64,000 nt of DNA from Mobula hypostoma (Eukaryota), in assembly GCF_963921235.1 (NCBI RefSeq), contig NC_086097.1, positions 20,524,001 through 20,588,000 of the forward strand, given 5' to 3'. Of this stretch, positions 5,154 to 62,900 are shown piece after piece (within the stretch, counting starts at the first letter, position 1; every line of letters begins with the position of its first letter). The translations under genes were made by a program, and so were the position numbers. The notes beneath the pieces were generated by a model. The model was not told the origin of the DNA and ran no database searches. It worked only from the letters and a program-made list of their open reading frames with translations.

Positions 5154-5288
5154 CACGCAAACACGAGGAAATCTGCAGATGCTGGAATTTCAAGCAACAG
5201 ACATTAAAATTGCTGGTGAATGCAGCAGGCCAGGCAGCGTCTATAGGAAGAGATACAGTCGATGTTTCGGGCCGAGACCCTTCGTCAG
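5154..5288 (-). mobile_element. 135-bp hammerhead-bearing pLTR-derived insertion
   Basis: Flanked by direct repeat TAATACTAAG (5144-5153 / 5289-5298). Confidence 0.8.
5256..5288 (-). ncRNA. Hammerhead motif lacking the 5' strand of stem I
   Basis: Reverse complement reads CTGACGA AGGGTCTCGGCCC GAAA CA TC GACTG. Confidence 0.6.
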
Positions 5289-37900: not shown

Positions 37901-40900
37901 TCCAGAGGCTGTCACCAGTTGTAGAGGCCAAAAGCCATCCTAAAGAGAGTAACATGACATCCATGAAAATACCAGTCTTTGCCCGATTTCGGCAAGGTGT
38001 CGAAGTAATTTGTAATAAGCCCCTTGCTGAGAACCAGTAGCCATGGCCAGTTACAATGAACCAGAGGTCGGGGCTAGTTGCAGGGGTCCATTGGCCATAT
38101 CCCATGGTGTTAATCTAGTAGCCAAGGTCCATTGGGCATGGTCAGCTGCAGTGAGTCAGTGCCCAAGGTCCAGTGGTGATGAGCCAGTGGCCGTGGTTGA
38201 CTCAGCCCTTGCTGTAAGCTGTTTCTGGAGTGGAAGTGGAAAGACAGCTTCAAACTGAAAGTATTTTCAGAACAGACACATGAACTCTGCACCTTGTCCT
38301 ACCTGACTCCTGTACTGATTTTGTTTTCAGATGTACTCCTTAGAGAGGTTTCGTTCTCTGAAAGACAAACTGCTTCTTGTAGATGAAGCTGTGCAAACAC
38401 ATGATGGAAATGTCATCACTGCTGTAAGTGTTCGCCAGGAACTTCATTTGAAGTTTATTGCTCTTTGTCGACGTGTGAAAGAAATCGTGAACAGTCCATG
38501 TGTAATATACCATAAATTTTATGGGCACTTTTCTGGGAATGAATATTATTCTTTTGGAGAAGCTGAACAGGATTACTGCACACATACTTATATAATATCC
38601 AAAGCATGATTCTGTTCGTGTTTCTTCAGGCAGGGTCTTAGATTCCATTTGATCTGTTTAGAAAGCAGATGAGCAATTGGCCATTAAACTAACAAGAAGA
38701 GAAACTTCTTTATGAGCCTTCAGAATTCTCTCTACATAGAGGGATGTTGATACTCAGTTTTGGTATATTGTTAAAGCTAGAAGTACAGTACTGTAGATAT
38801 TTACAAATCTCAGTTTATAATTGTTGTGTTGACAAATTTCTCGAGAGTTTGTGTCTCTATTCATGGTTAGCTTAGCCTCCCAAGTAGTCTAAAATCCAGC
38901 AGAGTGAGTGGAGCTGGACTGGAGGATAGAAGTGTCGTGTTGAATTATCGGTTTCTGTGCTGTTATATACATCCCAGTGAAGGTGCAGTGGAGAGGCAAC
39001 ATCATCTGGCTTAGAGTAGGAAAAGCAGAACAACAAAAAAAATGAGCTGCTGGAGGAACGATGTTGGAATGGGTAAGGGGAATAGAGGAGTTGATGTTGT
39101 GAGAGCAGTTGGAAATGAAAAGGGTTCAAAGGTTCATTTTATTCTATGCACGCATAATACACTCTGGCATTCATCTTTTCCAGATAGTCACGAAATGCCG
39201 AAAGACCATGGGAGTTGTTGTAAAAAAAGACATCAACTCCCCCGCACCCCCCCGGCATAAAAACGGAAAAGAAACAAAACTTGTAGACCCAAAATCCCCC
39301 ACCCCTCCCCGCAGCAGAAAAACAGTGAGAGTAGCTTCAAATCACCCTTCCCAGAGAAAAAACAGTGACAATAACAATCCCTGTCCTGGTCACTCACAGA
39401 AAAGAACATCGACAATAGCATCAAAGTCCCCAGCCCTCCCTCCTCACACAAAAAATTAAAAGATCACCCACCTGTGAATCAGCCACTAGAAAGAAAACAC
39501 GGAGAAACTGAAGGAGACCAATATAAAGTACAGTTCAATAATCACATAACTCTCAGACTATTGAAAATGTCTGTCCGTCAGCATATGAGGAGAGCGGCCG
39601 TACGAACTCATTCCTTCCATGAAGAGTGACCGCCATGCCAGGTCCAAACACTGCCAATCTGGCTGCTGACCATCGTCGCCGTGGTGGCCTCTGTTGGGAG
39701 CGATAGCTGATCCCCTCCGCATTCACCTTGATGCTTCAATCTTCCTTGCCGCATCAAGAGAGAGTCATTCCTGACCCCGCGCTCTGTCTCTGGTCTTTCC
39801 CACGAGTCAGCTTGTGTTCTCGGTCCTTGTCAGGGTCCCCTTCTCTGATCTTCTCCTTAAAGCAGCTCTCCGGACACAGCAGAGCACTAGGTTATTTGAT
39901 CGAGTTCCAAACCGCACGTCACAGGCTTCAACAGTTTCCGTAACAGAAACAAGACAAAAAGAATGAGCAGAAGGCATAGAAAAAGTGAAATAATTGAAGA
40001 GATTAGCTATCTGAAAGATGTCGCCTGAGGACTTATTCACTGACGTCATCGTGACTGGAAGACAAAGATCGAGAGAGGGGAACAAATCAGAAGGGGTTAT
40101 CCAAGAGCTAGAAGAGTGTTGAAGATGTGAGAAAGGATCATCACTGTGAAAAGCTGGAGGTGGTTAGAACTTGTTGCAACATTATGTACCAGGAGATTTT
40201 ATCTCAATGCCTCACTTCTCCACACACGTATGAGAAAGGGGTTTATGTGCAGAGACCTGTATCCCCTTGAGCTTAGAGATGTTTTCATCAAAATATACAA
40301 AACTCTTCAGGTCTCTGCAATGTACCTGTGGGGATGATTTTTCCATTGGTTGGTATTTAAAATGCTTTATAACTTGCAACATACTTGATCCTCCCAGCTG
40401 AACGTATGGCATGGTGAAGGAGTAGTCATTTTCTGACTTAACATACTTCTGTCAGTGGCTTACCTCTGGATTATAACTATGTTTGAACTACTTATGTTAA
40501 TTAAGAAGGGCAAATTACCTGTCTAATACTTGTATTTGTGGAGGCCAGGTCGTTGGGTGTATTTAAGGCAGAGATTGATAGATTCTTGATTGGACATAGC
40601 AGCAAAGGTTACGGGAAGAAAGCCGACAAATGAGGTTGAGGAGGGGTAAAAAGGACCAGCCATGATTGAATGGCGGAGCAGACTCGATGGGCCAAATGGC
40701 TTAATTCTGCTCCTATATCTTATGGTATTGGAGTCAATGTGTGCAAAAACTTTTTTTTCCTTGCAGATTTTGATCTTCCTGAAGAAAACATTAAGCAAAG
40801 GTAATTTGGTCTTCACCCATTTGTGTTTGTGATGTTTAGACATCAGCGTTGAGATGAATATGAAGGCTTATCTATGAGTTAGCTTGTTCTCCAAATGGGT

Positions 40901-43900
40901 AAGATGAATTTACTGATACCAGTTGTTTTACTGAGTAATTCAGTCTCAGCCTGAGAACTGTTGGGGTGATATTGGTGGATTTAAGTTTCTGCATGCATCA
41001 GGGAAGGAGGTAGATCGAGGATCAACTTTATTCACCATATACTTTTACATGTATTAGGAAAATGCTGTGCTATGTTAGCGCCACATGCAAAAAAAATCAG
41101 CGTTCAACAGTTATAAAGAATTTTAAAAAATAATGTTAGAGGTTAAAACGCAAACAACAGTTAGTCCTGACGAAGGGTCTCGGCCTGAAACGTCGACTGT
41201 ACCTCTTCCTAGAGATGCTGCCCGGCCTGCTGCGTTCACCAGCAACTTTGATGTGTGTTGCTTAGAGGTTAAAGTATGGATATGGATTGAAACATGCATA
41301 AATACCAGCATGTATATATTTACAATGTACACAGCTCTATAAAAAGTGGTTGGAAGTGTTTACAGTGCAGTACAGTGACTGAGGCATTATATAGACAGGG
41401 GAGAGGGGGCTAACTAGAATGGTTGATCAGATTAACTATTAAGATGGCATGAAGTTTGTTTTTTGTCTTACTAGTCTATAGTGCTTTCCAGTAGGGAGCT
41501 TTTGGAAAAGGCAGTTTCCAGGGTGTTTAGTGTACACAGTGATTTTGTTTTCTTGCCCACTTCTTTGTCCTGGACACATGCATGACTTGCAGTCATGGTA
41601 GACTGGAGCCAATCACAGTTTTCTGCAGTTTTCAATATTCTGAGATGATGCTGCATCAAACCAGACAGGAATGGATGATGTCAGAATGCTCTCCATGATG
41701 GCAGTGTAGAATTGCAATAGTACATTCTGGGAAAGATGATTTATACCAGCTGCCGCAAGAAGTACATCTCTGCCGAGCCTTTTTGCTAATGAAGGAGATT
41801 TGTTCTCCCACAAAGTCTTGTGAAATAATAATGTCGAGAAGCCTGAATGTTGAAATTATGCTATCTCCCCACCATTGAGCACATCTGTCGTAAGAAAGCA
41901 GCATCCATCATTAGGGACCCCCACCATCCTTGCCAGGATCTCTCCTCACTGTTGCCATCATGTAGGAACGTCATTTCACTCAAATTCACTTGCCCCATCA
42001 TTAAAATGTTCCCTCAACCTATGGACTCACTTTCAAGGTCTCTTTGTCTCATGTTCTCGATATTTATTGCTTATTTATTGATTATTATTATTTATTTCTT
42101 TTTGTATTTGCACAGTTTATTGTTTCTTGCACATTGGTTGTTGGTCCACCCTGTAGGGTGCAGTCTTTCATTGATTCTATTGTGTTTCTGGTATCTACTG
42201 TGATTGTCCGCAAGAAAATGAATCTCAGGTTTTTATATGGTGACATTTATATACCCTGACAATAAATTTCCTTGGAACTGTAGAGTTGTTGATGGTAAGT
42301 GTTTGGAGAGGAGGCATATTTCTCCTGAACTCAATATGCATCTCTGCCATTTTGAGGGCATTCAGCTCCAAGCTCCAGGTAGCTAATACCTGGAACATGG
42401 TGTTAAGAATGGAAGTGGAAGCAGATACGATGAGTAGCATTTTGATCAGCACATGAACAGGCTGAGAAGGGGGGATATAGACTCTGTGCAGGCAGATGGG
42501 ATGAGTTCTGATGGGATGGGATGAGTACTGATGAAGGGTCTCGGTCCGAAACATCGACTGTTTATTCGTTTCCATTGAAGCCGTCTGACCTGCTGAGTTC
42601 TTCCAGCATTTTGTGTGTGTTACTCTTGATTTACAGCATTTGCAGAATCTCTTGTGTTTGGGATTAGTCTAGATTGGTATCATTGTAGACATAGACTGAA
42701 GACCAGCATTGTAATGTGTGGTGATTTGAGTTACTGTCACTTTCTTGTCAGTTTGAGCCAGTTTGGCCATTCTCCTCTAACCTCTCTTATTAACAAGGTG
42801 CTTTTGCCCACAGAACAGCTGCTTGCTAGATATTTATAGTTTTTCATACCATTCTCTGTAAACCCTAGAAACCGTTGCGCATGAAAATCTCAGGAGATTA
42901 GCAGTTCTGAGATACCTGAGAAAAGGATTAATGGTATACTATATGAAGACAATTTCTCACCAGCTTTCTCTTGCAGAATTACCTTTTGAGGGCAGTAACC
43001 TTGTCCTGGTTTTGAATAAGTCAGACAGTAATGATGAAGCTTGATACTCTTGTGTGGCCACAGAACAGCGCTGTTGCATGCTGTGGAGTTAATGAAGCCT
43101 GTGCACTCTCAAAATGTTAATGGAGCAGTGGAGAACCTTTTGTACAGGGGAGGGTTGGGTTACTCAGGGTGACACGGTAGTGTAGTAGTTAGCACAATGA
43201 TTCACAGTCCCCAGCGGCCCGTGTTCAATTCCTACCACTGCCTGGAAGGAGTTTGTACTTTCTCCCTGAGACCACGCTGATTTCCTCTGGGTGCTCTGGT
43301 TTCCACCCACAGTCCAATGGTGTGTGAGTTAATTGGTCATTGTAAATTGTCCCGTGATTAGGCTAGTGTTAAGTTGGAGAGGTTGGACAACATGGCTCAA
43401 AGGGCCTGCGCTGTGCTGTATCTCAATGAATAAATATGCTTCCCTTTAACCTCATGTCACTAAATACTGATGTAAGATCACAAGCCTAGAACATTACCTC
43501 TGCTCCTCTCTCAGCAGATGAAAATAAGGATGTAAGAGACAGAGGCAGAGGTGGGGCCATTCAAATGCTTCTACTTGCTCCATCATGGCTGAACTCTTAT
43601 CACGGGGCCTCTTTCCTGTTCTAACCACAAAATCCTTAATTCATCTGAAAGTCTACTGACCACAGTATTCAGTGCCTAAGTCTGAACAGTTCTCTTATGT
43701 AGATAATTCCAATTATCAATCATTAGCCATATCTCAGAAAGCATATGTTGTCATTGGAGAGAGTCCAGAAGAGGTTCACGAGGATGATTCTGGGAATGAA
43801 GGGGTTAATGTATGAGGAACGTTTGGCAGCTTTGGATCTGTGCTCACTGGAATTTAGAAGAATGCGGTGGGGGGTGGAATCTCATTGAAACCTACTGACG

Positions 43901-46900
43901 TGTTGAAAGGACTAGATAGGGTGGATGTGGAGAGAATGTTTCCCATGGTGGGGGTATCCAGAACCAGAGGGCGCAGCCTCAAAATTGAGGGGTGACCATT
44001 TAGAACAGAGGTAAGGAGGAGTTTTTTTAGCCAGAGAGTAGTGAATCTGTGAAATGCTCTGCCACAGACTGAAGTGGAGGCCGAGTCCGTGGGTATGTTT
44101 AAAGCGGAAGTTGATCCTTTCTTGATCGGTCGGGGCGTCAAAGGATATGGCGAGAAGGCAGGTGTGTGGGGTTGAGTGGGATCTGGGATCACCCATGATG
44201 GGATGGCAGAGCAGACACGATGGGCTGAGTGGCCTAATTCTGCTCCTATGTCTTATGGACAATCTTAGTCATACCCTGGGTGAAGAAATATTTTCTTGTC
44301 TCTCTGTGGAAAACCCGACATCTTATTTTGAGATGTCCAAGCTGGGGAAGAGTCATTGCCAGTCGAGTCCCTTGACTGCTTAGCTCACCTCTCCGCGCAC
44401 GGACCTTTGGTTGCTCCCTTTCGTCTTGCCAAATATTTGCTTACCAGCTCTATCTATTACCCCCCTCTACTACCTCACTCACTGCACTGCACTGTAAACT
44501 CTTTAAACCACTTCTTATAATGCTGCTTACATTGTAGATACATGCTGGTATTTATTCTAAATCCGTACTTTAACCTCTAAATTATTTTTGGGTGATTCTT
44601 TGTCCTTTGTAATTGTTTGGTGTTGCTGTTTTGTGTTGCATGTCATGCCAACACACGAGACCATGGGAAAAACGTTCAGGCTCCTTATAGACTGAGTTGG
44701 GAATTGAATCCTCACTCTTCTGATTGCTGGTGCTGTAAAGTGTTACGCTAACCACTACGCTATGAGAAGTTTGCATGTTTTTCCTGCAATCGTGCTTTTT
44801 TCCCCCAGTGTCCTCCCATGCACCAAAGATGTGCTGGTAGGATATTGTCCCCTGTAACTTACTTCTTAGTGCGGGTAAGGGGTGATAGAAATTAAGCAGA
44901 GTTGAAGGGCAGTGCATGAGAAGGAATAATTTGTTGGGAAATAAGGAGAGGAGTAATGGTACTGACAGGATTGTTATGCTGGTATTCTATGGGATAAAAT
45001 GTCCTCCTCCTACATACAGTAAGTAAATGTAAAATAATAGCCAGTGTCAATAATTACAACCATGACCCTATTTGTTTCACTATTTAAAACCCAATTGGTG
45101 GACTGATGTCCTCTAAAGGAATTCTGTTATCCTCTCTGGATCATCTGTGACTCCAGACCCACAGTGCAGTTGACTTGTAGAAGTGGCCTAGCAAGCAACA
45201 CACGTCAGGCAACTGGGATTGGCTACAAGAGTTAACATTGTCGGCGTCATCCACCGAAAATAAGTAATTAAGTAAAGGAGAGTGGATTAACTATAGGGTG
45301 ACACAGTAGTGTAGCGGTTGGTGCAGTTGGTTTGCAGCAGAGTTTGATTCCTGCCGCTGTCAGTACAGAGTTTGAACGTTCTGCCCATGACTGTGTAGGG
45401 TTCGTCCAGGTGCTCTGGTTTCCTTCCAAAAATGTATAGGTTAGGGTTAGTGAGTTGGTGGCAACATTTGCACAAACCTTGCTAATTTGCTTTGAACATA
45501 CTTGTGACAAGTAAAGCTAACCTTATCTTACATAATTTTATAAAATGGAGCTGAATAAATGTCTAAAGAGTTTGGAAATAGAAATGGCAAAATAGCCACC
45601 TTCTGGAACATTTCATGGTTCTGACTATTGCAATAGAGAATGATAGACTGCTTTTTAAAAGTCTCTCGTTTGTCGAAGTCCTTGATGCCTACGTAGCAGT
45701 TGACTTGACTTGCAGGTATCATTCCGATTCTGTCCCACTGATTGCACATGCATGTTTGTGTTTTACAGAGGTTCTGTTTCAAGAGCTGCAGTACAAGCAG
45801 GTTGCTCTGCAGCAATTTGTCCACTATCTGAAGGAGACGGGAGAACAGAAACTACTGATGGAGATGCTCAGGTAAGACGGCTGATCTTGTATTCCATACT
45901 TCCTGTTGGCTTTTTGTTTGGATTTTGGAGTGCAGGACGAGGAAGCAGTTGGCAGTCCCTGGGTTGCGTAAGGGCTCCATTTCTAATAATTGTCCATAGG
46001 CCGATTTTTCTGTAAATCTGAATTGTCGGTTTCCATATCGTATCGTCGGACACACACTATAATTATTTAATTTCATTGAACAATCATCCTAACTCTACCC
46101 ATGATAAACTAATGGGAAAAATATATATATATATACTCAGTGGCCATTTTATTAAGTACACCTGTTCACCAGCTAGTTAATGCAAATATCTATTCAGCCA
46201 ATCATGTGGGGGGGGGGGCAACACAATACATAACAGCATTCAGATATGGTCAAGAGATTCAGTTGTTCAGACCAAACATCAGAATGGGGGAAGAAATCTG
46301 ATCTAAGTGACTTTGACCATGGAACAATTGTCGGTGCCAGTTAGGGTGGTTTGAGCATCTCAGAACCTGCTGATCTCCTGGGATTTTCATGCATAGCAGT
46401 CTTCTAGAGTTTACAGGGAATTGTGCATAAAACAAAAAAAAAAATCCAGCGAGTGGCAATTTTGTATGTGAAAATGCCTTGTTAATGAGAGAGGAGACTG
46501 GTTCAAATTGACAGGAAGGCAGCTGTTACCCTCAAATAACCACAAATTACAACGGTAGTGTGAAAAGGAGCATCTCTGAACAGTGATGTGCAAAAGGACA
46601 CATTGAATCTTGAAGTGGATGGGCTACGGAAGCAGAAGACCACAAAAAATACACTCAATTGCCACTTTATTAGGTACAGGAGTTACAAGGCCACTGAGTG
46701 TATAGACATAATTATACATGAATATCATGAAATATTATTATTAGTAATAGTATTATTGCTACCTTGAGAAGTGCTTTCCTAATGTATGGGAGAATTTGCA
46801 AAGGGTGGATTTCCTTAGGTCAGGACAGGTTAGGTCATTCATAACTAGTAAATTAACTAATTAAATTCACACAGGAGTGTTGAAACATGAAGTGAATGCC

Positions 46901-49900: not shown

Positions 49901-52900
49901 TTATAAGGTTGCCCCTCCCATTTCCAGTTTAGCTGCATCTTACCTATAACAGGGTGACATAAATATAATTGAGATCATGGCTGATCCAACCTTGATCTCA
50001 TTTATATATGTATGTTATAGGAAAGGCCTCAATGCTTCTTTTCCTCCTCTCTCATCTTATGGTTCATGAGTCTGGCAATCTCTGTTTTGAATATATTAGA
50101 TGACACTGCCTCTGCAGCTCTCTGGAGGAGAATACCCCTATGAAAAGAGAAATTCCTATATATGTATTCCCATGCATTATCTTGGGACATAGGAGACCAT
50201 TTGGCTCAGTGACTCTTATGTTAGCTCTCAGAAGCATGCCTATCAGTGATACCATGCCACCATTTGACTCCCTGTAAGGTCTTCTCTCTTACCCATCAAC
50301 TCCTCCAGTTCCCCTGGCATCTGCCTGCACTGCGGCCAATTTACAGTGCTCAATTAACCTCCCCTGCAGAATATGGGAGGAAATCAGGGACCCTGGGGTA
50401 AGTCTGTGTGGACATAGAGAACATGCAGACTGCACACGGTCAGTAACAGACATCAGTCTGTAGCCTGGGTTCCTGGAACTGTGAAGCAACAGCACTATCT
50501 ATTTGCATCACTGTTCCTCCTCATTTGTCTTAAGTCGGCAATGCCTTATTCTGAATCTATACCCACTCGTTTAAGGTAACCCTATTAAGGGAAACATTCC
50601 CTTGCCTTCCTCCCTCCGATCCCCTTCAATGTCCATCAAAATCTTAAAACATTTTAATAAGGCATTTTGTCATTTTCCTATACTGTGTTGTGTACAGGCC
50701 CAATGTACTCAGCCATTCAATGCCTTCATCCCATCCTGAATCCCTCCCGTACAATTGTTACCTGGATGCCATTCATTAAGGTCCTGATACCTGGCACCTG
50801 GCACCACAAAGTTGTGCGCATCTGAAAAGCCGTGAGGTAAGGACAAAATCTTTTGGGGACACAATAGATCCATCACTGCAAAAGAGGGGGAATCTCAGTT
50901 AATGTCTGTTTCTATCTATGAGAGGACTTTAATTTATCTCTCTTCTGCTGCCTATCAAATTTTATAGGATTTTCTGATTTTATCTCAGAATTCTGCAACT
51001 TGTAATTGCTTCATTACTGCACCTTGAGTTCAAAATAAATTTATTATCGAAGTACATGGAGTTCTGCATAGGTATGTTCCATTGAGGCAGGGAAAGGATG
51101 GTAGGGTAAAAGAACCATGGTGTACAAAGGATATAGAAAATCCAGTTAAGAAAAAAAGAAAAGCTTATGGAAGGTTCAAGAAACTAGGTACTGTTAGAGC
51201 TCTAGAAAATTACAATGGTGTCAGGAAGGAGCTCAAGAATGAAGTTAGGAGAGTTAGAAGGGGCCTTGAGAAGACCTTGGCGACCAGGATTAAGGAAAAC
51301 CCCAAGGCATTTTACAAGTACGTGAAGCACAAGAGGATGTGCCACGTGAGAATGGGACCAATCAGGAGTGAGATTGGAAACCTGGGTATGGAGCTGGACG
51401 AGGTAGCGGAGGTACTTAATGAATACTTTGCTTCAGCATTCACCAGTGAAAAGGACCTTGGCAATTGTGGGGATGACTTACAGCAGACTTGAGTGTATAG
51501 ACATTAAGAAAGAGGATGTCCTGGAGCTTTTGAAAGGTATTAAATTAGATAAGTTGCCGGGACCGGATGAGATATACCCCAGGCTCCTGTGGGAAGTGAG
51601 GGAGGAGATTGCTGAGCCTTAGGTGGTGATCTTTGCCAAGGAAGATTGGAAGGTTGAAAACATTGTTCCCTTGTTCAAGAAAAGGAGTAAAGATAGCCCA
51701 GGAAATTATAGACCAGTGAGTCTTACTTCTGGGGAGGGCAATTTGTTGGAGAACTTCCTGAGAGGTAGGATTTATGAGCATTTAAACAGATTTAATCTGA
51801 TTAGTCATAGTCATAGTCATACTTTATTGATCCCGAGGGAGATTGGTTTTCGTTACAGTTGCACCATAAATAATTAAATAGTAATAAAACCGTAAATAAT
51901 TAAATAGTAATATGTAAATTATGCCAGGAAATAAGTCCACGACCAGCCTATTTGCTCAGAGTGTCTGACCCTCCAAGGGAGGAGGTGTAAAGTTTGATGG
52001 CCACAGGCAGGAATGACTTCCTATGACGCTCAGTGTTGCATCTCAGTGGAATGAGTCTCTGGCTGAATGTACGCCTGTGCCCAACCAGTCCATTATGTAG
52101 TGGATGGGAGACATTGTCCAAGATAGCATGCAACTTAGACAGCATCCTCTTTCCAGACACCACCATCAGAGAGTCCAGTTCCATCCCCACAACATCACTG
52201 GCCTTACCAATGAGTTTGTTGACTCTGTTGGTGTCTGTTATCCTCCGCCTGCTGCCCCAGCACACAACAGCAAACATGATAGCACTGGCCACCACAGACA
52301 CGTAGAACATCCTCAGCATCGTCTGACAGATGTTAAAGGACCTCAGTCTCCTCAGGAAATAGAGACGGCTCTGACCCTTCTTGTAGACAGCTTCAGTGTT
52401 CTTTGACCAGTCCAGTTTATTGTCAATTCGTATCCCCAAGTATTTGTAATCCTCCACCATGTCCACATAGTCAGCATGGCTTTGTCAAGGGCAGGTCATG
52501 TCTTACGAGCCTGATTGAATTCTTTAAGGATGTAATAAAACACATTGATGAAGATAGAGCAGTGGATGTACTGTATATGGATTTTAGTAAGACATATGAT
52601 AAGGTTCCCCATGTGAGGCTCAATCAGAAAGAAATGAGGCATGGGATCCTTGCTTTGTGGATCCAGAATTGACTTGCCCACAGAAGGCAAAGGGTAGTTG
52701 TAGATGATTTGTATTCTGTATGGAGGACGGTGGCCAGTGGTATTCTGCAGGGATCTGTTCTGGGACCCCTTCTCTTTGTGATTTTTATAAATGACCTGGA
52801 TAAGGAAGTAGAAGGATGGGTTAGTAAGTTTTCTGTTGACACAAGAGTTGAAGGGTGTTGTGGATAGTCTGGAGGGTTGTCAGAGGTTACAGCGTGACAA

Positions 52901-55900
52901 CGATAGGATGCAGAACTGGGCTGAGAAGTGGCAGATTGGGTTCAATCCAGATAAGTGTGAAATGGGTCAGTTCAGTAGGTCAAATTTGGAGACAGAATAT
53001 AATACTAATGGTAAGCCTCTTGGCATTTTGGAGGATCAGCAAGATCTTGGGATCCACATCCATAGGACACTTAAAGTTGCTGCGCAGGTTGACAGTGTTG
53101 TTAAGAAGGCGTATGGTGTGTTGGCCTTCAACCATGGGATTGTGTTCAGGAGCCGTGAGGTAATGTTACAGCTATATAAGACCTTTGTTAGACCCCAGTT
53201 GGAGTACTGTTTTCAGTTCTGGTCACCTCACTAAGGAAGGATGTGGATAATATAGAGAGAGTGCAGAGGAAATTTACAAGGACGTTACCTGGATTGGAGA
53301 GCGTACCTTTTGAGACTAGGTTGAGTGAACTTGGCCTTTTCTCCTTGGCACGGCAGAGAATGAGAGGTGACCTGACAGAGGTGTATAAGATGATGAGAGG
53401 CATTGATCGTGTGGCTAACACAAGGGGGCATAGTTTTAAGGTGCTTGGAAGTAGGTACAGGGGGATGTCAGAGGTAAGTTTTTCACACAGAGAGTGGTGG
53501 GTGTGTGGAATGCACTGCCAGCGAAGGTGGTGGAGTCGGATACAATAGGGTCTTTTAAGAGCCTGTTAGGTACGTGGAGCTTAGAAAAATAGAGGGCTAT
53601 GCGATAGGGAAATTCTGGGAAGTTTCTAGAGTAGGTTCCATGTTTGTCACAACATTGCGGGCCAAAGGGCCTGTAATGTGCTGTAAATTTCTATGTTTCT
53701 ATGTTTAGATAGGTCACTGTATAATACCTAGAGATTCATTTTCTTGTAGACATTCACTGTAAAAGCGAAGAAATACAATAGAATCAATGAAAAACTACAC
53801 ACAAAATGTTGACAGCCAATGTGCAAAGGAAGACAAACTGTGTAAATAAATAAATAGTACTGAGAACATGAGTTGTAGAGTCCTTGAAAGTGAGTCCGTA
53901 GGTTGTGGCATCAGTTCAGAGCAGAGATGAATGAAATTATCCATGATAGTTTTAGGAGCCATGATGGTTGACTATTCCTGAACCTGGTGGTCTTATAGCT
54001 CCTTCCCAATAGCAGCAGCGAGAAGTGAGCATGGTCTGGATGGTGGAGATCCTTAATGATGGATGCTTGAGAATGGTCGGTTCCCAAGCTTCCAGTTTCT
54101 AAATTGTTGTTAAGGATTTTCTGTTGATGTCTGAAGCAAATTTGCAGGAGATATTAACTCGTTTTCAAATTCAATAAATGCCATTGCAGTCAGGTTAATT
54201 TGTTTTAATATTTTAATTTCTTATTTCAGCTCTTGCGCTACAAGGAACATTTAAATATCAGAAGCCATAGTGAGAGGAAGGAATATTTGAAAAGCTGTAT
54301 TGGGTAAGTATTGAGTAGAGATACTGTGTAAGCAAGCAGCTGAGAGAAGGCAAGCTAACAGGGTTGATAATTTTGTTTATTTCCACCCAAGGGCTCTAAG
54401 TTTCTAATTTCTCTCCTCCTTTCCCACTTGATGCGCTCCCCTTGTTGGGCCACAGTGCTGTGGGTACAGGGCATTCAAATGTTCATCCAGGTACTATGTT
54501 AGTTGAAGCAGTGAATGTTGAAATCCCTGCACACTGTGATCATGTCCAAACACAATCCTGCCATCCCTCACTTTGTATTAGAAACAGAGGGCTATACAGT
54601 ACAGAAACAGGCCCTTCAGCCCAGTAAGTCTATGTCAGAATCAAAATCAGATTTATTTTCACCAGCATGTGTCGTGAAATTTGTTAACTTAGCAGCAGCA
54701 GTTCAATGCAATACATAATATAGAAGAGAAAAAACAAAACAAAATAACAAACAAATAAATATATTGAATAGATTAAAATAGTGCAAAAACAGAAATACTA
54801 TATAGATTAAAAAAGTGAGGTAGTGTCCAAGGTTCAATGTCCATTTAGGAATCTGATGGCAGAGAGGAAGAAGCTGTTGCTGAATTGCTGAGTGTGTGCC
54901 TTCAGGCTTCTGTATCTCCTACCTGATGGTAACGGTGAGAAACGGGCATGCCCTGGGTGCTGGAGGTCCTTAATAATGGATGCTGCCTTTCTGGGACACC
55001 GCTCCCTGAAGATGTCCTGGGTACTTTGCAGCCTAGTACCCAAGATGGAGCTGACTAGATTTACAACCCTCTGCAGCTTCTTTCGGTCCTGTGCAGTAGC
55101 CACCCCCCACCCCACATACCAGACGGTGATGCAGCCTGTCAGAATGCTCTCCACAGTACACCTATAGAAGTTTTTGAGTGTATTTGTTGACATACCGAAT
55201 CTCTTCACACTCCTAATGAAGTATAGTCACTGTCTTGCCACCATACTAATCCCACAGAGGGGAAGGTGGGTGGTGGGGAAGCAGAAATGAACTAAGAAAC
55301 TGGGAAGCGACAGGCGGAAGAGACAGCTTCCCCTTCACCTGGTCTCACCTATCACTTCCCATCTTGTATCTTTCCCCTCCCCTCACCTTCTTGTTCTGGC
55401 TTCTACTCCTTCCTTTCAGTCCTGAGGAAGGGTCATGACCCGAAACGTCGACTGTTCATTCCCCTCCATGGGTGCTGCGTGACCTGCTGAGTTCCTCCAA
55501 TGTTTTTTGTGTGATACCTGAGATTTCCAGTACCTGCTGAGTCTCTTGTGTTTATGATTTTCTCTGTCTCTGTTTTTGTCTTTAGGCTCCCGTTTGCGAC
55601 TGATGATAGTGCCTTTGTTGAAGATCACTATACACTGCTGGAGAGACAGATTATTATCGATGTGAGGAACAACTTGGTGTATAGTTTACCTTTCCATTAT
55701 CATTGGTCCACCTCAGAACCCACCATCAGCTCGTTCCTTCGACACCCACTAATGGTCTTCTCCCCTTCCAACTGCAAGTTTATCCCATATCTACCTTGAT
55801 TTCCAGCCAGATTTCCACATTGGAAAGAACTGCTTTGTTTTTGCTCAAATTCAAAAAGACATAGTCAGCACTTTTTTTTCCCCCACGGGTACACAATAGA

Positions 55901-58278
55901 AAGCCTACTGTCTGCATGCAGCTTGTTGTGGATGCAGCTTAATCTATTATTTGAACCAGCTTGCCCTCCACTAACTGTCATATCACATCCAAGGACCCCT
56001 CTCCTGCTGAGAATTCTCTCTTCTCCCCTCTCCCTTTGGGCAGAAGGGGCAAAAGCATGAGAACATTTACCAGCAGACTCAAGGGCAGCTTCTGTCCCGC
56101 TATTATAGAATCTTGTATGGACCTAATATATACTAAAACTGAAATCTTTCTATCTTAATCTGTCTTGTTGTGACCCTTGCGCTTTATTTGTCCACTATAC
56201 TGTTTCCTCCCACAGCCCAAAGACGTATGAGTTAGTAGGTTAATTGGTCATTGTAAATTGCCCTGTGCAGAGGCGAGGGTTAAATAGTTGTGTTGCTGGA
56301 TGGTGTGGCTAACTAGCCCGGAAGGGCCTGTTCCGTGCTGTATTTCTAAGTAACTAAATCAATGTGCTGCATTTTCTCGGTATCTGCAACACAATATATT
56401 CTGCATTCATTATTTTTACTTTGGTACTACTGATGTATTTATGTCTGGTGTGATCTAGTTGGAGGCCATGTAATCAAAAGCCTTTCACTGCACCTTAGAA
56501 CATGGATCAATAATATGCCAATTACTAATTCCCAGCATTTTGTGTTAGTATCACACTCTGTACATTATAGCCAGTTTTGTATGAGACATAGTGTCATACA
56601 GCATGGAAGCAGGTCCTTTGCCCCAACTCATCCATGCCAACTGTGTTGCCCGTGTTTGGCCCACAGCCTTCTCAACCTCCCTTATCCATGTACTTATCTA
56701 AATGGCTCAATGTGCCCACCTCAACTATTATTTTTGGTAGCTCATTTTAAGTACACATCACCCTTTTGTGAAGCAGCTGCCCCTGATGTCCCTTTTAAAT
56801 CTCTCACCTCTGATCTTAAACCTATGCCCTCTTGTTTTTTTATGGACCACCTCCCTGGGATAAATACTCTGTGCTTTCACCCTGTCTGTGCCCTGCCTGA
56901 TCTTACTCACCGCTCCTGATCACTGATCTCCCTCCTGGTACTTAGCCTTGCAACCGGAACAAGTGCCACACCTGCCCCTAAACACCCCAGGGCCCCAAAC
57001 AGTCCTTCCACTGGAGGTGACTCTTCATTTGTGAGTCCATTGGGCTCATCTACTATATCCGGTGCTCCTGGAGTGGCGTCCTGTATATTGGCGAGACCCG
57101 ACGCAGATTGGTAGACTGCTGAGCACCTTCGCTCCATCTGCCAGAAAAGCAAGATCTCCTGGTGGCCATCCATTTCAGTTCTGCTTCCCATTCCCATTCC
57201 CATTCCCATTCTGGCATAACAGTCCATGGCCTCCTCTACTGTCGTGATGAGGCCACGCTCAGTTTGGAGGAGCAACACCTAATATTCCGTCTGGGTAGCC
57301 TCCAACCTGATGCAATGATCATCGATCTCTCGAACCTCTGGTAGTTGTCCCCCCCCCCCCGCCCCACTTCACCATTCCCCAATCCCATTTCCGTCTCTCA
57401 CCTTATCTCCTTACCTGCCCATCACCTTCCTCTGGTTCTCCTCCCCCTTCCCTTTCTTCCACGGCCTTCCGTCCTCTCTTATCAGATTCCCCTTTCTCCA
57501 GCCCTTTATCTCTTTCTCCTATCAACTTTCCAGCTCTTTACTTCACCCCACTCCCGTTTTTTCTTATCATCTGCTACCTTTTACTTCTTCCTCCCCTTCC
57601 TCCACCTCCTTACTCTGACTTCTCATTTCCTTTTCCAGTCCTGATGAAGGGCTTCAGCTGAAACGTAGATTGTTGAATTTTTTTCCATAGATGCTGCTTG
57701 GCCTGCTGAGATCCTTCAGCATTTTGTGTGTATTGTTTATTCACCACTGTCAGGTCCTCCCCCTAATAAGGTAAAAAGGTTCTAGTAAATGCAACTTTCC
57801 TCATAACTAAGGCCCCTAAGTCCAAGCAATATCCTGATAAATCTTTTATGCATTATTTCTAGTTTAAAGTCTTTCCTATAACAGGGTAACCAGAACGATA
57901 CACCATAGTCCAAATGAGGCTTTATCCACTCCAAGTTGTTCTTGTTTTACTGCATATTTTATGTCCTTCTGAGAGTGCCCAGTGAACTTATGTGGTATCT
58001 TTAACTAAGTAAGAAACTGTAAAGAGAGACAAATTTAGGGTTTACTGGGAATGAACTCTGGGTGGTACTTGTGAAAAGGACTGTCCATTTCACTGAGATT
58101 GCCCTGGCTTCAGAGGTGACCATTGTTGTTTCTGGGTTTTCAGGAGAACGATAAACGTGTTGAGGCATCCAAACAGATGAAAGTGTTCATTGAGCACCCC
58201 AGGAAGGCTTCCATCCTGTGCATGCCACTCGTGACAACACTTTACTACTCCTGCTTTTATCATTACGGAGAAACGGAG
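16849..58278 (+). CDS. VIPAS39: VIPAS39 / SPE-39 homolog, spliced CDS (13 coding exons in window, 3' end missing)
   Basis: 13 AG..GT/GC-bounded exons join in consistent phase into 357 codons: [127 protein letters not shown]. This is colinear with vertebrate VIPAS39 as recalled. Confidence 0.97.
17380..17893. mobile_element. PIF/Harbinger-type MITE
   Basis: ~27-bp TIR AGGCTGATTTATACTTCTG(C/T)GTCAAAT; TSD TTA. Confidence 0.88.
18656..18690 (+). ncRNA. Degenerate hammerhead relic
   Basis: GTC CTGACGT GGGGTCTCAGCCC GAAA TATC AACT, followed by the same downstream repeat sequence as the other copies; core A9 is mutated. Confidence 0.45.
19517..21420 (-). mobile_element. CR1 LINE fragment
   Basis: [50 protein letters not shown]. 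Confidence 0.92.
21539..21862 (+). mobile_element. V-SINE (tRNA head + V domain)
   Basis: A box TAGTGTAGCAGTT, B box GGTTCAATTCC, V domain gagtttgtacgttcttcccatgact..ctccagtttcatcccaca. Confidence 0.85.
22253..23172 (+). mobile_element. Rex1/Babar-type LINE 3' fragment
   Basis: [29 protein letters not shown]. Confidence 0.88.
23431..23530 (+). CDS. VIPAS39: VIPAS39 coding exon 2 (100 nt)
   Basis: ttccttcag|[33 protein letters not shown]|gtaagg. Confidence 0.96.
24095..24622 (+). mobile_element. CR1 LINE 3' end
   Basis: [32 protein letters not shown] plus tail. Confidence 0.86.
24810..24956 (+). CDS. VIPAS39: VIPAS39 coding exon 3 (147 nt)
   Basis: tttcctcag|[27 protein letters not shown]|gtaaac; phase 1-1. 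Confidence 0.95.
25660..26348 (-). mobile_element. Rex1/Babar-type LINE 3' fragment
   Basis: [27 protein letters not shown]. Confidence 0.82.
27859..28777. mobile_element. PIF/Harbinger non-autonomous element
   Basis: TIR GG(G/C)TACGTCCACACTA(A/G)ACCAGATAA; 3-bp TSD TGA; splits the hAT transposase. Confidence 0.9.
29903..30760 (+). mobile_element. Solo LTR (Gypsy-like)
   Basis: TGTTAC...GTGACA termini, 4-bp TSD CAGT/CTGT, TATA box GGGTATAAAAGGG ~30022, AATAAA ~30698; removing it restores the host LINE tail gttcaatacagtacataatatag. Confidence 0.82.
32827..32895 (+). CDS. VIPAS39: VIPAS39 coding exon 4 (69 nt)
   Basis: gtcctgcag|[23 protein letters not shown]|gtaagt; phase 1-1. Confidence 0.9.
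33235..34295 (-). mobile_element. Tc1 transposon fragment (decayed transposase)
   Basis: [47 protein letters not shown]. Confidence 0.93.
34410..35953 (+). mobile_element. pogo/Tigger-type internally deleted element
   Basis: TA|CAGGTGTCCCC...GGGGGAAACCTG|TA; peptide [38 protein letters not shown]; inserted in a CR1 tail. Confidence 0.87.
35138..35413. repeat. Long imperfect inverted repeat (arms ~120 bp)
   Basis: 35163-35231 is the reverse complement of 35312-35380; 35241-35258 pairs with 35289-35306. Confidence 0.9.
36365..36426 (+). CDS. VIPAS39: VIPAS39 coding exon 5 (62 nt)
   Basis: ctctgcccag|[21 protein letters not shown]|gtaggt. Confidence 0.88.
37587..37643 (+). CDS. VIPAS39: VIPAS39 coding exon 6 (57 nt)
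   Basis: tttccacag|[19 protein letters not shown]|gtatgg. Confidence 0.93.
38331..38423 (+). CDS. VIPAS39: VIPAS39 coding exon 7 (93 nt)
   Basis: gttttcag|[31 protein letters not shown]|gtaagt. Confidence 0.96.
39124..40061 (-). mobile_element. ~940-bp non-coding LINE-derived element
   Basis: Same architecture as 203-1015: CpG-rich 5' part (CTTCCAGTCACGATGACGTCA) and LINE-like tail ending ..aataaaatgaacctttgaacc. Confidence 0.5.
40767..40800 (+). CDS. VIPAS39: VIPAS39 coding exon 8 (34 nt)
   Basis: ttccttgcag|[11 protein letters not shown]+G|gtaatt. Confidence 0.94.
41148..41261 (+). mobile_element. 114-bp hammerhead-bearing pLTR-derived insertion
   Basis: Flanked by direct repeat TTAGAGGTTAAA (41136-41147 / 41262-41273). 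Confidence 0.85.
41162..41199 (+). ncRNA. Minimal type I hammerhead ribozyme motif
   Basis: TAGTC CTGACGA AGGGTCTCGGCCT GAAA CG TC GACTG. Confidence 0.8.
42528..42560 (+). ncRNA. Hammerhead motif, partly degenerate
   Basis: CTGATGA AGGGTCTCGGTCC GAAA CA TC GACTG; the 5' strand of stem I is imperfect (GAGTA). Confidence 0.6.
43167..43435 (+). mobile_element. V-SINE
   Basis: A/B boxes and V domain. Further partial copies near 5897, 17070, 25310, 44655, 45296, 50300 and 56200. Confidence 0.82.
43735..44257 (+). mobile_element. CR1 LINE 3' end
   Basis: Same family and tail. Confidence 0.86.
45769..45871 (+). CDS. VIPAS39: VIPAS39 coding exon 9 (103 nt)
   Basis: ttttacag|[34 protein letters not shown]|gtaaga. 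Confidence 0.95.
46134..46700. mobile_element. Tc1-type MITE
   Basis: TIR (C)ACTCAGTGGCC...GGCCACTGAGTG|TA; a related fragment lies at 42700-42918 in the opposite orientation. Confidence 0.83.
47236..47263 (+). CDS. VIPAS39: VIPAS39 coding exon 10 (28 nt micro-exon)
   Basis: ttcaatacag|[10 protein letters not shown]|gtaagt; phase 2-0 is required to keep the frame. Confidence 0.9.
47758..48025 (-). mobile_element. Short copy of the LINE family at 51803-52467
   Basis: Near-identical to 51810-52080 (tcatactttattgatccc..gtctctggctgaatgtac). Confidence 0.88.
48455..49355 (+). mobile_element. Rex1/Babar-type LINE 3' fragment
   Basis: [49 protein letters not shown]. Confidence 0.87.
49358..49813 (-). 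mobile_element. CR1 LINE 3' end
   Basis: [40 protein letters not shown]. Confidence 0.87.
51052..53707 (+). mobile_element. CR1 LINE, 5'-truncated, degenerate
   Basis: [72 protein letters not shown]; (TTTCTATG)n tail. Confidence 0.92.
51803..52467 (-). mobile_element. Second Rex1-like LINE family 3' end, nested in CR1
   Basis: [42 protein letters not shown] with an (ATGACT)n tail; a shorter copy lies at 47758-48025. Confidence 0.88.
54230..54303 (+). CDS. VIPAS39: VIPAS39 coding exon 11 (74 nt)
   Basis: ttatttcag|[24 protein letters not shown]+GG|gtaagt. Confidence 0.95.
54636..55240 (-). mobile_element. Rex1/Babar-type LINE 3' end (close paralog of 12840-13580)
   Basis: Near-identical translation [44 protein letters not shown]. 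Confidence 0.9.
55255..55553 (+). mobile_element. Penelope pLTR fragment with a short inverted 5' segment
   Basis: Purine-rich segment (tgggaagcgacaggcgg) is inverted relative to ctcacctatcacttccca; then hammerhead and shared tail (..cctgctgagttcctcca..tctcttgtgttt). Confidence 0.75.
55417..55454 (+). ncRNA. Minimal type I hammerhead ribozyme motif (best-preserved copy)
   Basis: CAGTC CTGAGGA A GGGTCATGACCC GAAA CG TC GACTG: perfect stem I and stem II, CUGANGA/GAAA core, GUC cleavage triplet. Confidence 0.85.
55586..55661 (+). CDS. VIPAS39: VIPAS39 coding exon 12 (76 nt)
   Basis: gtctttag|[26 protein letters not shown]|gtgagg. Confidence 0.96.
56905..57737 (+). mobile_element. Penelope-like element 3' fragment (GIY-YIG endonuclease relic + pLTR with hammerhead)
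   Basis: Translates [68 protein letters not shown], followed by a pyrimidine-rich pLTR and the hammerhead. Confidence 0.85.
57636..57672 (+). ncRNA. Hammerhead motif in Penelope pseudo-LTR (stem II weakened)
   Basis: CAGTC CTGATGA AGGGCTTCAGCT GAAA CG TA GATTG. Confidence 0.7.
58144..58278 (+). CDS. VIPAS39: VIPAS39 coding exon 13 (135 nt)
   Basis: gttttcag|[45 protein letters not shown]|gtgagt. Confidence 0.96.
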
Positions 58279-58624
58279 GTGAGTCACTGTTTCTGATTGC
58301 AGTCCCGCACATGCGTTAGCTGCATCAGGGCTGAGAGTGGAGCACAACTGCTTTAGAACATAGAACGGTACAGCACAGTACAGGCCCTTTGGTCCATGGT
58401 GTTGTGCCAACCTTCTAACCTGTTCTAAGATCTATTTGACCCGTCCCTCTCCTATAGCCTTCCATTTTTCTATCATGCATATGGCTATCCGAAGACTTCC
58501 GGGTCATCAAGGGAATGGCGGCGTAAGGAAAAGGTCTCTCGACAAAAAAGAAGGTAAACTGCCCCAAAATCGAATTTAGACAAATACTTAATATTGCATA
58601 ACTATATTAATAAAAGGGGCAAGG

Positions 58625-59611
58625 ATGATGTCTAAGAACAAGATTAAAAAGTCCGCTCCGAAGGCTGATAAACATAAAGAGACGCAGCAAGGCGACGGGC
58701 CTAGCTCCCCCACGGCAAGCCAGGACGGAGATAATGAGGGGGAATCGGTGACTCTGTCTTTGATTCTCGGAGAGATTCGTGAGTTCCGACAAGATAACAG
58801 CAAACAGCTGGAAGATATTAATGGAGAAATAGTAAAAACTAACTCGCGGATAGATGAAGCCGAAGCGAGGATCGTTGGAATTGAAGAGAAGCTACAAAAC
58901 GCCGAGGAAGTGATAGCAGAAATGCTGAAGCTGCAAGACCAACTCCAGTGGAAACTAATAGATCAAGAAGGCCGCTCGAGAAGGGAAAATGTGAGGATCT
59001 ACGGAGTTCCTGAAGGAACCGAAGGTAAACCCGGATTGATGATTCCCTTCATAGAGAAGCTGCTTAGAGAGAGCCTTGATATACCGGCCGCAAAAGACCT
59101 ACAGATAGAAAGAGCTCACCGCGCGTTGGCACCACAGCCTCCGGCAGGTGCCCAGCCCAGATCAATTCTGATCAGATTTCTCAGTTACAGAACGAAGGAA
59201 GAGGTGCTTAAACGGGCATGGCAAAAGAAAGGTTTCATGTGGAGCAACTGTAAAATCAGTTTAGACCACGACTACGCACGGGGGATTCTTGCCAGACGGA
59301 AGGAATATACGGAAACACGGAGAGTCCTGAAGGAAAACAACATCAGATTCCAGACCCTGTATCCAGCTCGGCTGAGAGTCTTTTACGACGAAGGGACAAA
59401 AACTTACGCTACGGTGGAGGAGGTAACGTCGGACCTGGCGGACCGGGGACTACCTATTAAAGTTATCGCCCAACTGGAGTCGCTACTGGAGAGGATTCGG
59501 CAGAAGTCGTGGCAGTTAGTGGGGCGAGGACGCTCCACTCGAACCAGAGTGTCAAACTACAAGGAAAAGCTGCAAATATTCAGACGCGAATGTACAGAGA
59601 ATACAGATTAA
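58625..59611 (+). CDS. L1 ORF1p-like RNA-binding protein, intact 328 aa
   Basis: Coiled coil (RIDEAEARIVGIEEKL), EGRSRRENVRIYGVPEG, IERAHR and LYPARLRV motifs. Confidence 0.9.
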   Translation: MMSKNKIKKSAPKADKHKETQQGDGPSSPTASQDGDNEGESVTLSLILGEIREFRQDNSKQLEDINGEIVKTNSRIDEAEARIVGIEEKLQNAEEVIAEMLKLQDQLQWKLIDQEGRSRRENVRIYGVPEGTEGKPGLMIPFIEKLLRESLDIPAAKDLQIERAHRALAPQPPAGAQPRSILIRFLSYRTKEEVLKRAWQKKGFMWSNCKISLDHDYARGILARRKEYTETRRVLKENNIRFQTLYPARLRVFYDEGTKTYATVEEVTSDLADRGLPIKVIAQLESLLERIRQKSWQLVGRGRSTRTRVSNYKEKLQIFRRECTENTD

Positions 59612-59966
59612 TTAAGAGAAATGACTGAAAAGAGTAAATCGGACTTAAAGGTAAAATGAAAACTGGTAACTGAAAATAAACTAGGCGGAATAACTTGAAT
59701 GATAGCAATTTGGTCGAGACATAAACAGGAGAAAATTCTCTATGATTATTCAAACTGCTGAGGGCCCTCTAACACAGGGTGAAGATAGAGGTTATCCCTC
59801 TGAACTGAGGCGGGTTGGTGCTCAAGCCTCACTGGGAAGTCGGGAAAAATTTTCAAATGTTACACGTTCAAAAATGTCTAGGGTGTGGTTATATGGTTTA
59901 CTGTTGAGAAGGGATTGCTTACTGTTTGGTTAGAAAAGGAGAGTGTTTTTTTTCTACTAGAGAAAA

Positions 59967-62900
59967 ATGCAAACTGAATTGGTAAAAATAATTTCCTATA
60001 ATGTTAATGGGGTTTTGAATCCAATTTAAAAAAATAAGATTACGTCTAAATTGAAAAAAGAGAGGGCACAAATAGCTTTCCTCCAGGAAATACATATGAG
60101 CCAATCTGAACATGGAAAATTAAAAAGAATGGGCTTTAAGCATGTATTTTATTCATCATATAAATTGAGTCACAAAAGAGGGGTAGCTACTTTAATATCA
60201 AGTACTCTTAATTATGAACATATTTCAGAGACTAAAGACAAAGAAGGACGGTTTGTAAAAATCACAGGAAGAATAGAAGGTACAGAAATAACATTGCTGA
60301 ATGTTTATGCTCCTCCAGGTTGTGAATGGTCATTTTATAGACACATTTTTGACCTAATGGTCAGTTCTCAAGGGGTAGTAATTTGTGGAGGGGATTTTAA
60401 TATTAGAGTAAATCCTGTATTAGATTCTTCAAGAATAGTTCCTCAGAATAAACCTGTGACTCGGAAAATGAATTCATTGATGGAGGAGTTGGGAATTATA
60501 GATGTCTGGAGGGAATTACACCCTACTAGTAAAGATTATACACATTCCTCTTTCCCTCATTCAGCCTATTCAAGGATAGACTATTTCTTTATCTTTAATA
60601 CAGATAGACTCAGGATAAAAAACTGTAATATTGCAACAATTGATCTGTCGGATCATAGCCCAGTCTCTATGTCTCTAATCCTGGAAAGGAAAATGAGGAA
60701 AACACTATGGAGGCTAAACTCACATATACTCAATAACTCGAAAGTAATGGAGAGATTAAGGGGAGAAATCAAAGAATATCTAGACCTTAATGACAGGGGA
60801 GAAACATCACCAGTGATCTTATGGGATACATTGAAAGCTGTACTGAGAGGGAAAATTATTTCCATTACTGCTCACATGAAAAAAATCAATGCACAAAAAT
60901 TAGCAGACCTTCAAGGAAAATTAAAACAACTTCAAGTTGTAGATAGCAACAAAAGTAATTCAAATCGAAAACAGGAAATTGCAAAGTGAAATTGACGATA
61001 TTTATACGTTGGAAACTCAAAGAAATTTTCTTTACCTGAGACAAAAGAATTATGAAGTAGCAGGTAAATCAGCTAGATTATTAGCATATAAATTATGAAA
61101 ACAACAAACAGACAATACAATTCATAAAATAAAGAATCCAAAGACAAAGCTTGTGGAGAGTGCAATAGGGAAAATTCAAGAGAGTTTTGAAACATATTAT
61201 TGAGAGCTGTACTCCCAGCCCCGGGCCCCCAATGAGCCCTATATAGACAGTGTATTGAATTTTTTAGATCTACCTAAACTTACAGATTTACAAAATGAAA
61301 GTTTATTAGAACCAGTAACCGTCAAAGAACTGAACGTGGCCATCTCTAGGTTAAAGGCTGGAAAGTCCCCGGGTTCTGATGGGTTTACCTCAGAGTGGTA
61401 CAAGTCCCTGAAGACGCAGTTAGCCCCATTACTACTTAACACCTTTAATTGGATCTTGCAGAGAGGAGAAACTCCACCTTCCTGGAGAGAAGCGATTATT
61501 TCAGTTATTCCTAAAGAGGGTAAAGATAAACTAGAATGTGGCAATTAGCGGCCAGTTAGTGTTCTTAATTTAGATTACAAACTATTTACATCTATATTAG
61601 CGTGCAGATTGGAAAAGCTTTTACCTGGCCTAATCCACTTAGACCAGACTGGATTTATTCAACAAAGACAAACACAGGACAACATAAGGAGAACTCTGCA
61701 CATATTAGAACAGGTTAATAAGAACAAGACAGAGACAATGGTAGTAGGATTGGACGCTGAGAAAGCTTTTGATTCGGTTAGTTGGGCATTCCTATACAGA
61801 GTGTTAGGAAGATTCGGCTTTCAAGAAAAGTTTATTAAAGTAATTCAGACTCTATATGACAGCCCTGCAGCCCGAATTAAGATAAATGGGGACCTCTCTG
61901 ACTCCTTCATCTTAGAGAGAGGCACTAGACAGGGATGCCCAATTTCTCCTCTCCTTTTTGCGCTATATATTGAACCGCTTGCCCAACTAATAAGACAGAG
62001 CGAAATCGTAAAAGGTATCAAGGTGGCAGGGATTGAACAGAAAGTGGCGTTATTCGCAGATGATGTTTTGGTCTATCTGAGTGAACCAGAAAAATCATTT
62101 ATAGGATTGTTTACACTGTTGGATGACTTTGGGAAAATATCAGGTTATAAAATAAATGTCAAGAAAACGCAGGTTATGTCCCTAAATTATACACCATCCA
62201 AAAAATTGCAGGATACATACGATCTTAAGTGGGAAGCTAAATCATTAAAATATTTAGGAATAACCCTGCCGAAGGATCTTTCAACACTGTCACAGGTAAA
62301 TTATGGGCCATTAATCTCAGAGATAAAAGCAGATATGCATAGATGGAATCTTATCCCCTTTTTAAGTTTAAATTCAAGGATAAATACTATAAAAATGAAT
62401 ATTCTTCCTCGGTTATTGTATCTTTTCCGTACTTTACTGGTGGAGGTGGATGATAATCAATTCACGGAATGGGACAAATGGATTTCCCGTTTCATTTGGC
62501 AAGGAAAGAAACCTAGAATTCGATATAACACCTTACAGTTAGGGAAGGAAGGAGGAGGTATGGTTCTTCCTTGCCTGAGAAATTATTTTTATGCCTCACA
62601 GATAACCCCTCTGTTATATTGGTGTAATAGGGAATATAAGGCTAGATGGAAGGAAATAGAATTTGGATTAGTTGACAGTTTTCCTCTACAGGCCTCAATA
62701 GCTGACAAAGGTTTGATGGCCCAGTTGGAAAAATTTAAAAACAGTTGGATAAATCTTACATTAAAAGTATGGCAGAAGGTGGTTAATTCATGTGGAATTA
62801 ATAACATGTTAAAACTCTTTAGATGGTGTGCATATGATACCGAATTCCTTCCCAACAGAGGAGATAAAAGATTTGAGCTATGGATAAAGAAAGGTCTTAC

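Follow-up and report, generated by a model that had tools for sequence, protein, structure and literature searches.

The 114-bp insertion at 41148-41261 of the analyzed window (the whole 64,000-nucleotide stretch of Mobula hypostoma contig NC_086097.1) is very probably a dead-on-arrival, exceptionally short product of an abundant Penelope-like element (PLE) that carries an endonuclease; it would have been made by two-ended priming and cut short by a stop at the edge of its hammerhead ribozyme. This agrees with the original prediction of a target-primed insertion of a Penelope-like fragment. The insertion lies within a target-site duplication, each of its two arms ends on a different one of two fixed 3' sites, its 5' edge coincides with a hot spot shared by about 30% of family copies, and copies of the same kind have originated repeatedly. 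The 114-bp insertion alone is ordinary debris; it is the population around it that is informative.

The insert is exactly 114 bp long and, as had been predicted, is bracketed by identical 12-mers, which cannot be extended on either side; the chance of a 12-bp repeat this close to both insert ends is about 2e-4. The last 2 nt of the left duplication also match element sequence beyond the tail (by comparison with L024), and the first 2 nt of the right duplication likewise match the element. The features of the locus and its relatives in the window are as follows.

41126..41384, + strand: older dispersed host repeat, the element's insertion target (aligned part only)
41136..41147, + strand: left target-site duplication, 12 bp
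41148..41160, - strand: inverted arm, comprising the final 13 nt of the PLE tail (in L002 the same arm maps to reference +121..+136)
41158..41160, no strand: overlap common to both arms by sequence, a 3-nt junction microhomology
41158..41261, + strand: forward arm, beginning shortly before hammerhead helix I and reaching the short 3' end site
41162..41199, + strand: minimal type-I hammerhead motif, as read against the description in PMC4209133
41162-66/41195-99, + strand: hammerhead helix I, 4-5 bp
41167-73, + strand: hammerhead core box
41175-86, + strand: hammerhead helix II
41187-90, + strand: hammerhead GAAA box
41190-93, + strand: hammerhead helix III, palindromic and loop-less
Between 41194 and 41195, + strand: predicted hammerhead cut
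41262..41273, + strand: right target-site duplication, 12 bp
44473..44589, - strand: paralogous host-repeat copy without the insertion, with a single 12-mer at 44569-44580
5154..5288, - strand: sibling simple insertion, from ribozyme core to tail end without an inverted arm, in a 10-bp duplication (5144-5153/5289-5298)

With the insert and one 12-mer removed, the host repeat aligns to the paralogue at 44473-44589 at 77% over 133 bp, and the one 12-mer there bears out the empty site proposed at about 44560-44580. A pattern spanning the unbroken target had 15 matches elsewhere in the 3.48 Gb of genome searched, 6 of them with the flank seen at 41136. We take the host repeat to resemble those of cartilaginous fishes. 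Contigs of organism A and organism B bridge both insert junctions, and the insertion is therefore common to both organisms; no empty orthologous site was found among the joints listed from contigs of related organisms, beside which stand 393 further joints. Other repeats share the window: a very high-copy short repeat end at 40644-40730 (summed contig depth above one million), what we take from its motifs to be a near-complete LINE-1/Tx1-like element at 58592-63747 (+), whose ORF1-like, endonuclease, and RT frames on the + strand are interrupted by stops, and presumed fragments of other LINE reverse transcriptases at 11587-13363 and 51948-52484.

Read in reverse complement, the inverted arm corresponds to the element's extreme 3' end, the forward version of which is present in L024; the copy at 5155, to which a resemblance had been noted, carries a sister variant of that end. 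In the forward arm, 93 nt counted from the core are identical to the long parent copies L006, L007, L017, and L026, which were chosen for their likeness to the copy at 41148-41261. This arm stops at the shorter of two family end sites, where the 37-nt tail is absent, and of that tail only the last 13 nt are present in the insert, inverted. The insert had been described as a ribozyme with about 60 nt of pLTR tail: the ribozyme stands, whereas those ~60 nt are not a tail in the published sense, the 37-nt tail being the part that the forward arm lacks. The sibling copy at 5154-5288 starts exactly at the ribozyme core.

The hammerhead features matched in our reading of the sequence were intact core boxes, helices I and II, and a palindromic, loop-less helix III. 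The G10.1-C11.1 pair was absent, with a T at 41186 giving a G-U wobble that is frequent in the subfamily. Rfam gave no matches across the whole window at gathering scores and, within 41100-41320 at E values up to 10, three chance matches, none of them a hammerhead. Folding revealed no special stability of the insert (z +1.05), and free folding of the monomer or of two copies together did not yield the active hammerhead fold.

Upstream of the ribozyme, long copies of the parent element pass a pyrimidine-rich repeat and then enter an ORF in which an RT-type motif is followed by a GIY-YIG-like end, as in L059, where a 380-amino-acid stretch carries YIDD and GIY-YIG-like motifs. When the 3' part of this ORF was compared, L059 matched Pfam PF01541 with an E value of 0.0024, below the cut-off, and no RT family match was obtained; a PDB sequence search with the ORF piece gave no match. 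Two properties of PLEs were seen: a hammerhead-bearing pLTR, with the ribozyme module of L024 lying both before the ORF start and at the 3' end, and a tail, delimited by two end sites about 37 nt apart and found at one end of inverted insertions. The ORF-start motif had 769 matches genome-wide, and exact motif counts were 46,540 and 58,301, the latter for the parent motif. The cysteine-rich linker of the parent may point to the Neptune clade.

L024 (440-1645) is an internally deleted tandem, in which an inverted arm is followed by ribozyme, tail, and ORF start fused to the 3' repeat; its upstream module begins about 21 nt above the core. At G000:C1:4659463-4659518, two motif copies meet head to head at the CAG above helix I in a perfect palindromic junction. 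A variant at position 41200 that marks some subfamilies in organisms A and B was near-absent from organism C (127 of 2.26 million summed depth), such that those subfamilies are perhaps younger than that split.

The ribozyme edge at which the forward arm begins is a hot spot found in about 30% of family copies. Our sample consisted of the first 100 core matches, all exact motif matches, in the first 4.3 Mb of one contig, and 41 of these lacked the intact 9 nt upstream. Among the 40 of them that were fetched, 30 ended 0-8 nt above the core (10 simple copies and 20 with an inverted arm), and 10 had point changes or continued; the 41st, read from L112, was the partner arm of that locus, for an edge total of 31/100. 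Over the next 9 nt upstream, only 1 of 29 copies ended (Fisher p 0.0014), and the mode of the 5' ends was 3-5 nt upstream of the core. Junctions of short inverted insertions gave the same picture, with 93 of the 100 matches listed falling at 0-9 nt (by eye), where the gap geometry would lead one to expect 53%. For the same gap, 20 junctions lay inside the ribozyme and none lay 67-115 nt upstream (where the anchor is exact in 14 of 29 loci), and junction density was about 11-fold higher at 0-9 nt than further upstream or inside the ribozyme. Extrapolation from this sample, one contig end, gives about 18,000 motif copies that start at the ribozyme edge.

Two further copies in the window begin at the ribozyme edge, that at 5154-5288 and an older one near 18659. 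The latter (18659-18753), a hammerhead copy of an older family, has a 12-bp duplication, starts about 3 nt above the core, and ends at the short site; the edge pattern therefore extends to that family. Diverged hammerhead copies of older families were also seen at 42524-42624, 55418-55494, and 57637-57739; clear duplications were not seen at these three, and upstream continuation was apparent for the 55418 and 57637 copies and not for that at 42524.

As the likeliest cause of the edge stop, we consider it rather probable that the copy runs off the 5' end of an RNA whose start lies at the edge. What we take to be an initiator-like motif lies 8-9 nt above the core, but the end mode falls a few bases inside it, a point against a start there. 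A G precedes the match in 8 of 30 edge copies, a count uninformative as to a cap-derived extra G. The same parent and product could also be had if the hot spot marked splicing or a stop of the reverse transcriptase and not a transcript start, which we consider unlikely but worth weighing. Long copies show a branch-point-like, pyrimidine-rich stretch ending in AG immediately before helix I, and in Drosophila virilis, where transcription starts well upstream of the ribozyme, helix I marks the end of an intron and splicing is described for the majority of transcripts (PMC2377424); if instead the enzyme stopped, the new DNA strand would fold on its own helix I complement. Against splicing, however, no shared first exon was found upstream of the edge copies, only 2 of 30 having an 8-nt sense match to element sequence from further upstream, at unrelated places; in 6 of the 10 simple edge copies, no more than 5 nt separate the duplication from the core; and the branch-like motif differs among subfamilies. 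Run-off is our preferred cause.

At their 3' ends, inverted insertions follow a strict rule: all 31 that could be resolved pair one short-site end with one tail end (17/17 small and 14/14 longer), the short ends lying at +86..+103 and the tail ends at +123..+140 from the core. The small set comprises 17 of 18 extended insertions, L133 being left out as complex; L019 and L063 were omitted as unresolved, and the duplication check on longer inverted pairs covers all but the four longest. L044 has an atypical forward end (+53), and L071 is a possible tail-plus-tail exception. Because non-inverted copies (n = 24) divide about evenly between short (11) and long (12) ends, with 1 other, mixed pairs would be expected half the time, and 17 of 17 has a p value of 7e-6.

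The inverted-plus-tail layout itself has already been published. Complex insertions of endonuclease-positive PLEs are described as carrying an inverted, 5'-truncated copy and a 30-40-bp tail at one end (PMC8557442, PMC3846280), of an origin termed undefined in PMC8557442. For the PAc/Poseidon element in vitro, the account in PMC11167929 has both target strands nicked and extended from an uncleaved RNA template, with two internal start sites that bracket the tail, a start site alike on both strands, and a requirement for RNA 3' of the start sites. The layout could instead have come from one primed strand that folded back and primed itself, without a second primed nick, as is proposed in the text of PMC3846280. 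This would yield the same DNA layout and has some appeal for the longer inverted copies L036, L044, and L052, whose junctions are near-symmetric, yet for the insertion studied here it appears quite improbable: its arms of 13 and 104 nt have only 3 nt in common, so that neither strand templated the other, and both outer ends fall on known start sites with 1-2-nt target overlaps. Priming at two nicks remains our reading of the inverted pairs.

The mini unit is a recurring product and not a lineage, each copy arising anew from the parent. The exact junction of the 114-bp insert occurs in 4 copies genome-wide, against 58,301 parent motifs; L010 is a fifth copy with one change, and a sixth variant is among the matches listed. 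Neighboring junctions form a continuum with arms of all lengths, and a search for junctions to a short inverted tail with a gap of up to 30 nt matched one tail variant 129 times and the other 45 times (174 matches, including one locus counted twice and a few non-tail pieces). Of 29 distinct short-inverted loci, which cover four haplotype classes, 25 have duplications of 12-17 bp and inserts of 104-144 bp, and 4 do not. Three parent haplotypes are represented among the five same-junction copies. Four of these copies are closer to a long parent than to one another, and the fifth is a tie. On a tree, the same-junction label was unclustered (433 of 500 shuffles as low).

An independent non-autonomous family, SINE-like or a retrozyme monomer with its own master copy mobilized by the Penelope enzyme, is accordingly very improbable, although parts of the data lean its way. 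The junction, with almost the same far end, is common to at least 5 loci that each lie in a separate duplication; a second junction turns up 12 times among 100 matches listed (by eye); a test of the five same-junction copies as one clade left a single origin unrejected (p-AU 0.11; 93 columns, hence weak); and non-autonomous Chlamys elements are reported in PMC8557442. The recurrent junctions, however, fall on 2-3-nt overlaps, and the insert has nothing of the RNA segment 3' to the start sites, which the lizard enzyme is described as needing (PMC11167929). A SINE-like family in the strict sense, with fixed structure and a master copy, was rejected on the few exact junctions, the continuum, the three haplotypes, and the lack of clustering, that p-AU value notwithstanding. 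A genome-wide search for head-to-tail joins with the short-end pattern returned 8, and tandem arrays of the hammerhead unit were not seen in it; with a single unit here, this falls short of the tandem organization by which retrozymes are defined in bioRxiv 10.64898/2026.07.22.740005. Of the two identities offered originally, extreme truncation is thus upheld, and a retrozyme or SINE-like parasite is not. The rule that fixed ends would denote a family and random ends truncation breaks down, since the ends are strongly non-random and the copies are still made anew from the parent. Ribozyme-only short units with duplications and recurring ends can therefore imitate a SINE or retrozyme family, and caution is warranted in naming them.

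That hammerhead self-cleavage set the ends, through unit-length or circular RNA, is scarcely credible: of the 20 junctions inside the ribozyme, 5 do begin at the predicted cut or one position ahead of it (by eye, against about 2 expected), a weak hint of cleaved RNA as a possible minor template, but this cut would fall 33 nt inside the insert, the chief pile-up lies above the core, the monomer has no helix III loop and a G-U at 10.1/11.1, and a single minimal motif is described as giving no cleavage in PMC4209133.

Taken together, the insertion at 41148-41261 would have arisen as follows. The element's enzyme would have nicked both target strands about 12-15 bp apart, a spacing given by the duplications, and reverse transcription would have been primed within the RNA from each nick, from one at the short start site and from its counterpart at the tail-end site, which lies 37 nt further 3'. 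For this two-site priming, the genomic pattern is observed directly, and the enzymology is inferred by analogy with the lizard element in vitro. The tail-primed copy would have ended after 13 nt, the short-site copy would have run about 104 nt to the ribozyme 5' edge, and repair would have joined the two at the 3-nt overlap. A more specific version, in which RNA starts at the hammerhead 5' edge, an enzyme dimer primes both strands at fixed sites (one per strand), and priming in the first module runs off at 100-140 nt, we rate as an even call. The 114-bp copy is probably immobile now, since the RNA segment 3' to the start sites, on which the lizard enzyme depends according to PMC11167929, is missing from it. 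If the specific version is true, the transposition cycle itself mass-produces ribozyme-headed mini-insertions (the ~18,000 motif copies extrapolated above), and these record where the RNA starts and which strand uses which of the two start sites. Tens of thousands of young copies provide two sharp, testable rules, one for the start site used on each strand and one for 5' ends at the ribozyme edge.

Comparison with known systems places these insertions among, yet apart from, several described types. In LINE-1 twin priming, two target nicks prime and an inversion results, with junction microhomology inside a target duplication, and the position at which the second primer lands varies within the element. 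Here, in contrast, both priming places are fixed element sites. Non-LTR retrozymes, as presented in bioRxiv 10.64898/2026.07.22.740005, are likewise non-coding, hammerhead-bearing, and derived from PLE terminal repeats, but by definition they are tandem repeats of two or more ribozyme units, whereas the insert has a single unit and an inverted end. The minimal type-I hammerheads of metazoan PLEs described in PMC4209133 share the short helix I, the extra base before helix II, and the loop-less palindromic helix III, and they too are mostly single dispersed copies tied to truncated PLEs; they differ in having G-C instead of G-U at 10.1/11.1 and in number, with thousands reported there for other vertebrates and tens of thousands of exact copies here. 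Complex insertions of endonuclease-positive PLEs (PMC8557442, PMC3846280) are alike in the inverted and forward arms, the tail at one end, the duplication, and the terminal-repeat hammerhead. What sets the present insertion apart is its extreme size (13 + 104 nt) and the strong pile-up at the ribozyme edge, of which the accessible text of those two papers makes no mention; no report of the pile-up or of the mini class was found in the main texts of the open-access literature. A further parallel, as portrayed in PMC11167929, is PAc/Poseidon of Anolis, in which two 3' end sites lie downstream of a hammerhead with about 37 nt between them, both strands are nicked, and uncleaved RNA is the template (the latter two in vitro); it showed no strand difference in vitro, whereas the inverted insertions analyzed here use one site per strand in 31 of 31 cases.
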